Source: Eledone cirrhosa (Eukaryota). From it: a stretch of 64,000 nucleotides of DNA. The DNA is taken from positions 196,230,001 to 196,294,000 of the forward strand of contig OZ024743.1 in the NCBI GenBank assembly GCA_964016885.1, written 5' to 3'. A model generated the notes under the pieces. It ran no database searches. It saw only the letters and a list, made by a program, of their open reading frames with translations, and was not told the DNA's origin. The position numbers and the translations under genes were made by a program. Shown one piece after another: positions 1,491 to 62,240 of this stretch (within the stretch, counting starts at the first letter, position 1; the number at the start of each line of letters is the position of its first letter).

Positions 1491-1690
1491 ATAGGAAAAA
1501 GTATGACCCCGACGGCAGAGCTCAAGCCGTTTCGACGGCTATTTCTGGACTGTCCAGAAATAGCCGTCGAAACGTCTTGATCTCTGTCGTCGGGGACATG
1601 CTTTTTCCTATTTCCCACTCTACAACCCTAAGTATTGATTACTCTGGTGCGTTATGGTCCATCTGGTTCCTTACCACAATTCCTTTGTTA
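1491..1690. mobile_element. Family A fold-back insertion (hairpin 1491-1611 plus 3' tail) in (TA)n
   Basis: ~60-bp arms ATAGGAAAAAGTATGACCCC... / ...GGGGACATGCTTTTTCCTAT. Homologous to 21287-21490 and 23552-24004. Contains only the 3' half of the family A HHR. Confidence 0.8.
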
Positions 1691-1704
1691 TATATATATA
1701 TATA

Positions 1705-1840
1705 TAGTTACGGCGCTTGCCATTCTGAGTTCTAATCCCGCCGAGGTTAACTTTGTCTTTCATCCTTACGGGGTCGATAAAATAAAGTACCAGTAATGTA
1801 CTGGGTAATTTGGGCCTTGTGCCAATAGTAGAAACAATTA
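1705..1840 (+). mobile_element. tRNA-derived SINE, partial
   Basis: B-box-like GAGTTCTAATCCC followed by the core GTTAACTTTGCCTTTCATCCTTACGGGGTCGATAAAATAAAGTACCAGT, shared by ~12 copies in the window. Confidence 0.8.
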
Positions 1841-1907
1841 TATAGACTCTGATATATATATATTTATATATATATATATATATATATATATATATATATA
1901 TATATAT

Positions 1908-2320
1908 TGGGAGAGATGACCCCTTAGCCTTTGTCAAGGCACAATTCTAGGAGAAGGAAAACTCTGATATAACACCTGCAACCCTGATGGTATCCAATGA
2001 TGTTGACTTGTTCTTCTTTTTGGTAAATATCATCTTGGTTAAGAGAGTGGGACTGGCTTTGTGCAGTGCCTTTGCTCACTATAAAAGCTTCACAGCACAG
2101 GCATTGCTTTATATCTGGAGATCTCTCTGCACTTGTCGTCACATGGTACCATGGGCCCAACACTATGTGTCAATAATTGTCACAAGTGTAGTGTTTGTAC
2201 CAGAGTTTTCAAGTCGCTGGCTGGACTAAAAAGTCGCACTCGTTCAGCGCATCGGTAGGGGTTCTCCTACATGGTTATAACGTAGTGGCCGTACTCGAAA
2301 ACGAGTTGGCAGCCACCATA
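1908..2320. mobile_element. Possible RTE-clade LINE 5' fragments
   Basis: CTAGGAGAAGGAAAACTCTGAT resembles RTE 5' UTR motifs (from memory). The minus-strand peptide 'EQVNIIG' weakly resembles the start of an APE domain. Confidence 0.3.
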
Positions 2321-2503
2321 TATATATATATATATATATATGAAAACTTTAAGACATGATATAAATAGGTGGTCTGTGCGATAGGGGTGGTGGAGAAGGA
2401 GCAGTGAAACGAACAAGAAGAAAACATAAGAATGAAGTGGAGCAAGAGGAAAAGAAGTCGATGATAAAGGAGGGGAAATATCAGGAGGGGGACAAGTAGG
2501 AGA

Positions 2504-2978
2504 GTAGTGGTAGTAGTAGTAGTAGTAGTAGTAGTAGTAGTAGTAGTAGTAGTAGTAGTAGTAGTAGTAGTAGTATGAGAAAGATGAGAAGTATGAGGAA
2601 CAGAAAGAAAGAAAGAAAGAAAGAAAGAAAGAAAGAAAGAAAGAAAGAAAGAAAGCTACAGCAGCAGCAGCTGTAGCAGCAGCAATAGTAGTAGTAGTAG
2701 TAGTAGTAGTAGTAGTAGTAGTAGTAGTAGTAGCAGCAGCAGCAGCAGCAGCAGCAACAGCAGCAGTGGTAGTAGTAGTAGTAGTAGTAGTAGTAGTAGT
2801 AGTAGTAGTAGTAGTAGTAGTAGTAGTAGTAGTAGTAGTAGTAGTAGTAGTAGTAGTATGAAGGAGAGGAAGACAGAAAGAAAAGAAAGAAAGAAAGAAA
2901 GAAAGAAAGAAAGAAAGAAAGAAAGAAAGAAAGAAAGAAAGAAAGAAAGAAAGAAAGAAAGAAAGAAAGAAAGAAAGA
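2504..2978. repeat. Compound microsatellite (TAG)n/(GAAA)n/(CAG)n
   Basis: Directly visible. Confidence 0.95.
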
Positions 2979-59424: not shown

Positions 59425-60570
59425 TCTTTATATATATAAAAGCGAGGATGTGTGTGTCTGTGTACAACTTTGCATTCTAAAGGCTTTTACAATTACCAAC
59501 TGAATTTGACCAAATTTTCTGTGCACGTTGCACAGGTCGCTAACATTTTTCAAATCGACCCACGTTGAGCAATAAAAAATCGATATCAAAATTATCGGTA
59601 GAAAAATTGATGTAAGGGAGATAACAAACTTTATTAACAAACTTTATTGACCTTATAAAAAAGAGAGATAACCACCTTTTCAGAAATATAAACATCACAT
59701 TCATTTGAAGATAAATCACTAATATTATCGTTTGTTTCTTGTTTATTCTTTGTTGCACTTTCAAAGTTAAAAACCACTTGTTGTTTTAACTTGTTTCACT
59801 ATATTAAGTGTTAATTTTCGCGTTAAGGGCCTAATCTCGCAACAGTCTCGAATTGAAGAGATTTTGATGATGGTTTGTTTATTTTTAGAACAATCGTTAT
59901 GGGACTTTCCATTCAAACCATTGGGACCTACAACTTTTACATTTTTAAAACTTTCATAAGCCATGTTGATACAAAAAAAAATTGTCGCACTTTCAAAGTT
60001 AACTGTCCCGCTTCAATTCATACATTTTGACTTTACAACTTTTCACCAAATATGCCCCGTAAAAGAAAGTATGCACATATTGGCTATCGGTCGAAGAAAA
60101 CAATGCCTGTAAATGACGCTCCGCCGATAACCGAAAATAGACAATCACTGAATGCGGTGAGTACAGTTATTGCAACATCTTTGTCCGCCGCTGAACGTCA
60201 GTTAGTGCGGCGAACCAATAATGCTAAAGCAACTGCTGCAGCACGAGCTGCAGAGACTACAGAGCAACGTGAAACATGCCTTGCTATGGATGCTACAGAT
60301 ACTGCTGCAGCAAGATCTGCAGAGACAGTACAGAAATATGAAAGACGCCGTGCGCGTAATGCTTCAGCTAATGTTGCAGCAAGAGCAATTGAGACTGAGC
60401 AAGAACGTCAAAGTCGGCATTTGAGAAATGCTTCAGCTACTGCTACGGCACGAGCTGTAGAGACTGTAACAAGTCGTGCTATTCGGCTGGTGGGTAACGC
60501 TCAACGTAGAGCTTTATCGCGGGGTATTTCAAAGGCATCACGCTCACAAATTGCACACAAATTGCAGTAG
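59425..60570 (+). mobile_element. 5' portion of an autonomous Helitron (truncated RepHel N-terminus)
   Basis: TCTTTATATATATAAAAG..GTGTGTCTGTG 5' end. ORF 60052-60570 (MPRKRK...) has ~23-aa repeats RAAETTEQRETCL / RSAETVQKYERR / RAIETEQERQSR, like animal Helitron N-termini. Rep and helicase domains are absent. Confidence 0.7.
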
Positions 60571-60819
60571 ATTGGATAAATTAGCCATTCTGGGTTGAGT
60601 TATCTGTTTGGGCTGTTTATGCGTGCGTGTATATGTCGAATCCTGTGTGTCTAGTTGTGATTGTCTGTTAGAGTTGGCTATTATGCACGTGTGCTTTATT
60701 ATGTCAAGTATTACGTGTTTGCGCTTTTATGTTACATATTGAGTACTGAGTTCTAATCCATGACCACATCAACACGGCCTGGAGTGAAATCTCACGGCGA
60801 TAATTCTATATATATATAA

Positions 60820-61280
60820 CCCCGATTTTTGCATAGCTACGGCTTCCTAAATGTTTACCCTGTAAACATACCGTGTTTCTTTAGGAATACAAAATGTCTA
60901 TACATATCTGTATACAGCTATGCTTGAAGCTAAATCCTATTTCTATTCTATTATAAGTTGAGGCAACTTATGCAGCTTCATATGCAAATGAGATTAATCA
61001 CCTCATTTACTCAGACTATATATTCTCGACTATTTTCAAGTCCAGCAGTCGTAAGCGTGGGAGGGTCCGTCCTAATGAAAACCAGTCAAGTCTGAAATGC
61101 ATAGACGGTTGTCCCCTTGCTTCTGCTGGACACTACCAGACGGCGTTTGCCCCGGTGTTTGCATAGCTACGGCTTCCTAAATGTTTACCCTTTAAACATA
61201 CCGTCTTTCCTTAGAAATACGAATTTTCTATACATAACTGTATACAGCTATGCTTGAAGCTAAATCCTATTTCTATTATA
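60820..61280 (+). mobile_element. Retrozyme-like element, 330-bp period, with mutated HHR (61067-61108)
   Basis: GCATAGCTACGGCTTCC at 60831 and 61161. CCGUC-CUAAUGA-..-GAAA-UGC-AUA/GACGG (G5->A). Confidence 0.72.
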
Positions 61281-61341
61281 TATATATATATATAAAATCC
61301 TATTTCTATTATATATATATATGTATATATATATATATATA

Positions 61342-61938
61342 TTTCGTTTCTGAATTTGTTTAGCAAGATTCTTTATCTGAAATCGTGTGTTGAAACCGAT
61401 ATTGTTATACTTTGGAAGGGTCATGTTGCCAATAAGAAACACACGCACCAGTTGCTTTCACTTCAATTTATTATATATTTATAAATTTATAAATTTACAA
61501 ATTTACAAACCTATAAATTTCTGGTTGGTTGGTTGGTTCCACAACCAGATAGTTGTTTATATATAGTCATAGTCCTTTCGTCACACACTCTGTGACCTCT
61601 TCAGTGACTGGGGATTCCTTTCTTCGTTTCTGTGCCTTTCCTTTCTTCTATCCTACGCCATTTTGTTTCTGTGAGTGTGTTGTGTGCTCAGTTTGCGCAT
61701 GCGCCACATCCGGGTGTCTCTGTGTGTTTGTGTTCATTTATCTATTTGTTTATTTATTTATTTATTTATTGTTGGTTGGTTGTTTGTTCTATGTGTGTGT
61801 GTGTTTTCATTTTGTCCTTAATTGTAAGTTGTGATGTTGCTGTTCCACTCATATTTTCAATTTAATTTTGGTTTTAATTCTTTTATGCTTACTGCCTCTG
61901 TAATTTGCCTAAACATTGCGTCTTTTCTGTGTGTGGAT
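61342..61938 (-). mobile_element. Family C PLE 3' portion
   Basis: Nearly identical to 13593-14095. Confidence 0.9.
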
Positions 61939-61957
61939 TATATATATATATATATAT

Positions 61958-62240
61958 TAAAGAGTTAAACAAGATTCAATGAGTACATCAAAGAATGAGT
62001 TTTACAGTAGATTGGAAGCACTCTACAGTAAATAATTTTCCAGAGTTATTAATATTAAAATACAAATATTAATAAAATAGATGTTCTTTTGATCAATTAA
62101 ATTTTATTATACATATTTCAGAGGTACAACAATACGTCCTCATCAGGCAAAATATAATGATACATGACATACCCTGAGATGTATAATAAAATTTAATTGA
62201 TCAAAAGAACATCTATTTTATTAATATTTGTATTTTAATA
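61958..62240. mobile_element. Family D short fold-back; HHR 62101-62154(-)
   Basis: Reverse complement of ~13350-13575 with a shortened stem II; inverted arm at 62180-62240. Confidence 0.8.

Follow-up and report, generated by a model that had tools for sequence, protein, structure and literature searches.

Two-Headed Insertions in the Window

The window, a 64,000-nucleotide stretch of the Eledone cirrhosa genome (C4, 196.23 Mb, in a 3.0-Gb assembly), is 33% G+C and dense with TA tracts. Inverted pairs within it were detected by self-comparison. All 15 sites listed in a preliminary description proved to be genuine divergent pairs of element 3′ ends, each adjoining a TA run, and the eight families claimed there were recovered as eight sequence groups, A–H. 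Every arm points away from the center into TA, as had been reported. This polarity was read from putative hammerhead motifs, found by a scripted motif scan in A, C, D, E, and G and by eye, in degenerate form, in B and F, and from GIY-YIG frames in H and also in A. The sites had been presented as fold-backs; they are indeed head-to-head pairs, but mirror symmetry is lacking, since at every site a tail (∼26–95 nt) is present on one arm only and the other arm ends before the tail start. We refer to the end with the tail as L and to the end without it as S.

Four sites belong to the Neptune-like family A. At 7560–9223, the L arm covers 7560–8957 (−) and the S arm 8958–9223 (+), with putative hammerhead motifs at 7811 (−) and 9043 (+). 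A C-terminal frame in the L arm (8025–8693, −) carries a CX4CxxC linker and a GIY-YIG endonuclease (PF01541, E = 1.1e-4, over the cut-off across 8028–8693). At 13595–14230, the S arm, which lacks the tail, exceeds the L arm in length (S arm ∼500 nt, −; L arm 133 nt, +). At 48234–48458 (S arm −, L arm +), the inner breakpoints are equal and lie within an AT-rich self-complementary stretch, and at 52099–52557 (S arm −, L arm +), a divergent lineage of the family has the same lineage variants on both arms.

Family B is found at 1494–1688 (S arm 1494–1550, −; L arm 1552–1688, +), where the center is the loop of a degenerate hammerhead-like stem II, at 21287–21487 (S arm −, L arm +), and at 23554–24002. 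The last had been listed among the fold-backs, at 23552, but is not a palindrome; instead, a tail-only L arm on the left (23554–23640, −) is fused to a ∼350-nt S arm on the right (+), with hardly any arm overlap. Two other readings, that family B centers lie inside a native long hairpin and that 23650–23945 is captured host DNA, were ruled out by native upstream sequence visible in loci L230 and L245.

Family C lies at 7339–7535 (L arm 7339–7475, −, with a putative hammerhead motif; S arm 7477–7535, +) and 19342–19535 (L arm −, S arm +). Family D lies at 10259–13578, where the S arm (10259–11156, −) and the L arm (12555–13578, +) are separated by ∼1.4 kb and putative hammerhead motifs occur at 10360 (−) and 13380 (+), and at 61958–62237 (L arm −, S arm +). 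The remaining groups have one site each. Family E spans 35430–35845 (L arm 35430–35690, −; S arm 35704–35845, +; putative hammerhead motif at 35745, +), and family G spans 22096–23374 (L arm from 22096, −; S arm 23108–23374, +; putative hammerhead motif at 23020, +), with an S end defined by this single site. The left edges of these two had been placed at 35511 and 22135 and are corrected here to ∼35430 and 22096. Family F occupies 21763–22077 (S arm −, L arm +); its ends are set from this site, and no second copy was found in the 0.99-Mb sample described below. The Hydra-type family H occupies 48688–50566, with an L arm (48688–50400, −) containing a broken RT/GIY-YIG frame and an S arm at 50421–50566 (+). 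A candidate absent from the first list, at ∼15707–16060, is probably a 16th two-headed site; it has a short arm (provisionally −), a TA tract in the center, and a longer arm (provisionally +).

The evidence supports the earlier identification of these sites as Penelope-like element (PLE) insertions: an RT with a C-terminal GIY-YIG endonuclease in one ORF, a pLTR with a tail, putative hammerhead motifs, and inverted 5′-truncated copies with a one-sided tail are all present. The best protein match of the main coding family is an Octopus vulgaris hypothetical protein (62% identity). One family A copy (L225) matches RVT_1 at E = 7e-5, under the curated cut-off, and has a YVDD motif and two in-frame stops; this piece gave no Pfam match to GIY-YIG. 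In another (L208), the pLTR tail is the ORF start; a partial tandem was seen for family A only. Family A has a CIDKKCITC linker before GIY-YIG, followed by C..C..H..H, and thus shares the CX4CxxC linker and CCHH-type residues with Neptune/Nematis. Family H frames contain YRDD and VYK..YIG, and the family shares with Hydra a CxCX5C linker (CNCRNRADC), CxxC (CDLC) and CxH (CKH) near the C terminus, and insertion in TA. When these motifs alone are compared with the descriptions in the text of PMC8557442, family A appears to be of Neptune/Nematis type and family H to belong to the Hydra clade. The non-coding groups B–G, to which no ORF was tied, may be PLE derivatives; they resemble the coding families in the behavior of their ends and have hammerhead-like motifs. 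No hammerhead motif was seen in family H. None of the 150 Rfam matches listed, of 221, was a hammerhead; those listed were low-complexity, under gathering scores, and nearly all to miRNA models.

Two Fixed 3′ Ends and Their Pairing

Within each family, the 3′ ends collected from the window and from 99 evenly spaced 10-kb pieces fell into two sharp classes, L and S. The S end sits inside L by 56 nt in A, 77 nt in B, ∼75 nt in C, ∼95 nt in D, 79 nt in E, and 86 nt in H, a few shared AT letters being counted. Exact end patterns, each of which represents one variant and therefore gives a lower bound, matched genome-wide at least 13,874 S and 12,045 L ends of family A, at least 4,126 S ends of family B, and at least 13,977 S and 2,994 L ends of family H; one trial pattern for the L end of family B gave only 3 matches. 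In family A, ATATCG (from an AATATCG motif) follows both the L and the S end in continuing element, and both ends lie within the first codons of the ORF; in the L208 copy, the frame opened by an ATG just 5′ of S stays open across the L end. Lone S copies exist as well (L142 and L158 in family A). Together with very short L arms and with tail-only and S-longer pairs, including pairs without arm difference, these copies show that S acts as an independent start site.

A third end class in family H (M) was rejected as mostly alignment over-run into TA, the window end at 50566 and that of locus L044 being S ends. True intermediate ends of this family occur at L122 and L098, and none was present among 60 seeded loci. 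We found no shared hairpin upstream of the ends. A bulged ACTC..TTGAGT hairpin lies just downstream of S in the reference copies of C, D, and E; it is mutated in the B copy and absent from the A, F, and G copies.

The two ends are combined in a regular way. In the window, 15 of 15 sites pair one L with one S end (with the S ends of F and G defined from one site each). In the spaced sample (99 10-kb pieces, 0.99 Mb), neighboring ends formed 31 divergent, 7 convergent, and 4 same-direction pairs, an excess of divergent over convergent pairs (p = 6e-5), and all 31 divergent pairs, from six families, had unlike ends: 30 were L+S, and one joined S to an intermediate end. In family A on C1 (1–37 Mb), exact motifs located 100 S and 89 L ends. 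Neighbors within 4 kb of each other were divergent in 46 cases, convergent in 4, and in the same direction in 2. Among the divergent pairs, 43 were L+S, 2 were L+L, and 1 was S+S (p = 2e-10 against free choice). The count of arm orientations proposed earlier, made here in the spaced sample and in this C1 interval, gave a divergent excess in both. In all fetched loci, many of them picked by one end, L+S accounted for 37 of 38 family B pairs (the other being S+S) and for 30 of 30 family H pairs. All of these pair counts are from samples. The unlike-end rule holds in both a Neptune-like and a Hydra-type family.

Two-headed insertion had been called the rule rather than the exception. This stands in the sense of a majority, with roughly 55–65% of ends paired overall, but one-headed copies are common too. 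Paired ends numbered 50 of 89 in the spaced sample, a lower bound in that short arms escape detection; the window gave 27 of 32. Among family A ends, an unlike partner was identified for 20 of the 30 that were S-seeded and for 19 of the 30 that were L-seeded. Sites are far more crowded in the window than in the spaced sample, in part an effect of having defined the families there.

Arm Lineage, Inner Breakpoints, and Joints

We compared the two arms in 54 family A pairs, leaving out of 76 pairs 4 that were unanchored and 18 with fewer than 40 shared columns, and masking low-complexity columns (364 of 596 kept). The arms differed by 1.5% (pooled), and at the median the partner arm was nearer than ∼97% of other copies. 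Lineage variants were scored in 53 pairs, with L219 dropped as a near-duplicate of L216, L139 excluded, and both of the near-identical inserts of L222 counted. Of the occurrences of such variants, 141 were common to the two arms and 31 were confined to a single arm (82% shared), against a mean of 16% and a maximum of 38% in a shuffled control. In the 25 youngest pairs, which include several lineages, 53 variants were shared and 4 unshared. The arms agreed in lineage at 26 of 27 informative loci, and the remaining one was a tie, so that no pair was clearly discordant. Both arms of family A pairs are thus shown to be of the same lineage. Locus-private variants, in contrast, were shared 4 times and unshared 62 times, which indicates that later gene conversion was minor. 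Lineage markers in family B (3 shared, 6 unshared) have little power, and those in family H (2 shared, 2 unshared) are not significant. Shared private variants had been put forward as a prediction of snap-back. Such sharing does not tell the models apart, since it is equally expected if a single RNA is primed twice; nor do the sequence tests used here distinguish a single RNA molecule from two that derive from the same source copy.

Inner breakpoints were compared in 74 family A pairs. The L arm was longer in 27, the arms were equal in 14, the S arm was longer in 21, and the L arm was tail-only in 12, so that sequence missing from the L arm is present in the S arm of 33 of the 74 pairs. The 30 family H pairs include 9 with a longer S arm and 8 with a short L arm. 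Overlap between arms reaches ∼1.8 kb. At the other extreme, the smallest family A inserts (43–63 nt) have arms without overlap, and L arms of 5–34 nt occur with S arms of ∼30 nt (L148, L150, L190, L197, and L217). Long pairs with extra sequence in the S arm also occur with only 0–0.6% arm difference (L030, L131, L137, L213, and L223); S-extra pairs are somewhat commoner among older copies (17 of 35 vs. 10 of 32, p = 0.21).

Inner breakpoints coincided in 14 of 74 family A pairs, where 2.3 were expected, several of them at self-complementary stretches, and L and S arm lengths were correlated (rho 0.43). Microhomology of at least 2 nt was present at 11 of the 14 measurable joints (of 40, the others being unreadable against one reference), compared with an expectation of ∼20%. 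The L arm runs past S in 62 of 74 family A pairs, and strand displacement is therefore required if the two arms are copied from one RNA. No clear pile-up of L-arm stops at S, as collision would give, was seen among the 74 pairs. A search for empty sites in the fetched DNA returned two chance element-TA-element joints and no true empty paralog.

Proposed Twin Priming and Alternative Routes

We favor twin priming as the probable explanation: the two target ends would start cDNA synthesis on a single RNA, each at a different fixed site. A PLE dimer on a single RNA would cut the TA tract; one target 3′ end would prime at L and the other at S, and both cDNAs would be extended toward the RNA 5′ end. 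The enzyme that started at L is assumed to displace the S cDNA across the overlap. The two cDNAs would then stop or be trimmed and meet centrally through a few complementary bases, and priming at a single end would leave an ordinary one-headed copy. The first of the alternatives offered in the preliminary description, in which both DNA ends prime and the cDNAs are joined centrally, is supported. As a whole, that interpretation is partly supported: element identity, polarity, and two-end priming find support, and the main feature, the existence of two different fixed ends, was overlooked. A 5′ limit common to both cDNAs of a single RNA would likewise make inner breakpoints coincide. Snap-back accounts equally well for equal breakpoints and for the correlation of arm lengths, which counts against twin priming, as does the occurrence of same-end pairs (2 L+L and 1 S+S of 46 in family A, 1 S+S in family B).

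Snap-back would have an L-primed cDNA fold back and be copied to S, where it is resolved by endonuclease or TA microhomology, with later central deletions shortening either arm. It would yield L+S ends and same-lineage arms automatically and would accommodate the equal breakpoints, several of which lie at self-complementary stretches. The centers of palindromes are known to be unstable, and S-extra pairs do lean older, if not significantly. We nevertheless consider this route unlikely. When an L-primed cDNA folds back, the resulting S arm must lie within the extent of the L arm, and in its plain form the model is therefore contradicted by the 33 of 74 family A pairs with extra sequence in the untailed arm. 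A second event must be invoked for these and for 17 of 30 family H pairs, some with arms that differ by only 0–0.6%, and neither the lone S copies nor the L arm of 5 nt is accounted for. Both tail boundaries are RT start sites in vitro (PMC11167929). Readings of the tail as a product of self-priming (PMC3846280) or of resolution (PMC8557442), as outlined in those texts, fall under the same scheme.

Somewhat more doubtful again are two RNAs from the same source copy, one primed at each DNA end, with an asymmetric complex forcing one L and one S start. Strand displacement would be unnecessary, one source might dominate in a germ cell and so give same-lineage arms, and the rare L+L and S+S pairs do require two templates or a full fold-back. 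However, neither the unlike ends nor the surplus of equal breakpoints is explained by the model itself, and clearly discordant pairs are absent from 27 informative loci (one tie) despite several lineages among the youngest copies. Assembly or library fold-back artefacts and chance neighbors can be dismissed with near certainty: although fold-back chimeras can arise in short-read libraries, the arms are separated by 62 private substitutions and end at family-specific points, divergent pairs greatly outnumber convergent ones, the L245 joint (1349 to 1461) recurs in raw short reads from three further samples, in each of which the reads begin at several different points, and short-read contigs contain many arm-to-arm joints.

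The pieces of twin-primed L1 copies hardly overlap. Twin priming, the accepted model for 5′-inverted L1 copies, resembles the route favored here as described in PMC2912911: two DNA ends prime one RNA, the cDNAs anneal by microhomology, and the 3′ ends face outward. In L1, however, 5′ inversion is a variant route in which the second primer anneals internally by microhomology (PMC2912911), whereas here both sites are fixed per family, most insertions would take this route, and overlap extends to ∼1.8 kb.

The PLE layout itself is already known. Inverted pLTRs, a one-sided tail, and TA targets have been published for EN+ PLEs, and the available descriptions match our sites in the head-to-head inverted 5′-truncated copy, in palindromes at the inverted junction, in a tail often present at a single end, and in microsatellite targets that mask target-site duplications (PMC3846280, PMC8557442). 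The published tail is 30–40 bp and optional, compared with ∼26–95 nt here, and was ascribed in those texts to endonuclease resolution or antisense self-priming (PMC3846280, PMC8557442). What is added beyond that layout is a quantitative rule of one L and one S end per insertion, and the demonstration that the arms share a lineage. In PMC8557442, the origin of PLE tandem and inverted structures is named as an open question. The L+S rule, which extends over two clades and tens of thousands of insertions and is accompanied by same-lineage arms, suggests that the inverted copy and the tail are products of a single event, and it makes the open mechanism testable.

For Poseidon_Ac in vitro, PMC11167929 reports that the protein, a predicted dimer, cuts and extends both target strands, that its target is AT-rich, like the TA targets here, and that internal RT starts occur at two sites bounding the tail, early in the ORF. 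The portions consulted draw no link between the pair of start sites and the pair of target ends in a single insertion, and they leave inverted copies unexplained; start sites on the top and bottom strands were alike in bulk, which neither proves nor rules out pairing within an event. A text search of its supplements gave no match on this point. For this existing system, the L+S rule is a sharp prediction (PMC11167929). No work applying twin priming to PLEs was found in the literature covered, and the portions consulted of PMC4209133, 10.64898/2026.07.22.740005, and 10.1101/2024.12.14.628481 contained nothing on it; the 2005–2008 papers by Arkhipova and Evgen'ev and the 2001 twin-priming paper, which lie outside this coverage, may discuss a two-primer model.

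A broader proposition, to which we give an even chance, is that PLEs with an endonuclease integrate by default through programmed twin priming, with an RT-endonuclease dimer setting two active sites on two fixed RNA start points and the tail corresponding to the RNA distance between these. If so, a rule common to a Neptune-like and a Hydra-type family would be ancestral for the class.

A MITE or other DNA transposon with terminal inverted repeats was also considered and rejected: the ends are unlike, the inner breakpoints vary freely, and there is no fixed size, family A inserts ranging from 43 to 3924 nt. In repeat annotation, hairpins of this sort should be taken as truncated retroelements, not MITEs.

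Sequence around the element ends and arm breakpoints

A bulged hairpin, ACTC..TTGAGT, is common to the tails of families C, D, and E (window positions 7380-7400, 13490-13520, and 35490-35510) and to family B loci elsewhere in the genome (L231-L259). The hairpin starts a few bases beyond the untailed 3′ end (S). It is absent from family A, in which both ends instead share ATATCG.

In the same family B loci, most arms stop ∼110-140 nt from the tailed 3′ end (L), in the stem II region of the hammerhead ribozyme. Because most arms end within this region, the folded ribozyme is suggested to be a strong stop for the reverse transcriptase (RT). 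At L148, L150, L190, L197, L217, and L222, family A is represented by minimal inserts (35-89 nt), in which the S arm breaks recurrently ∼30 nt in, at the near-palindromic TTGGCAA.

Chains and duplicated inserts

Two-headed insertions of different families form chains at 7339-14230 and 21287-24002 with only short TA runs between them, and these chains look as if each new TA flank had drawn the next insertion. Near-identical two-headed inserts also occur at two places on another contig, C1 (L216 at 34.71 Mb and L219 at 35.94 Mb), and two more lie in tandem at L222; these repeated inserts are duplications that followed insertion.

Other elements and the family A coding frame

A probable 16th two-headed insertion, representing a ninth group, lies at 15707-16060 around a long central TA tract; no second copy was found among the fetched loci. 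Another broken PLE, which retains RT fragments and GIY-YIG on the plus strand, and an additional copy of its 3′ portion account for 4450-7173 and 53029-54439; no inverted partner was seen. A dispersed SINE-like repeat of ∼200 nt (1707-1841, 16666-18205, 19042-19148, 39187-39624, 45933-46113, 47430-47617, and 52606-52804) does not follow the L/S pattern. The window also holds a DDE_1 transposase fragment on the minus strand (18373-18879; PF03184, E = 3e-12) and, by motif scan, additional hammerhead-like matches outside the listed sites, at 596, 20050, and 40427.

Upstream of the RT, the family A frame at L225 (2172-3920) carries a long Asn/Thr/His-rich low-complexity stretch. This stretch recalls the Asn-rich inserts that PMC3846280 describes in Penelope elements of Adineta vaga, although its position differs.
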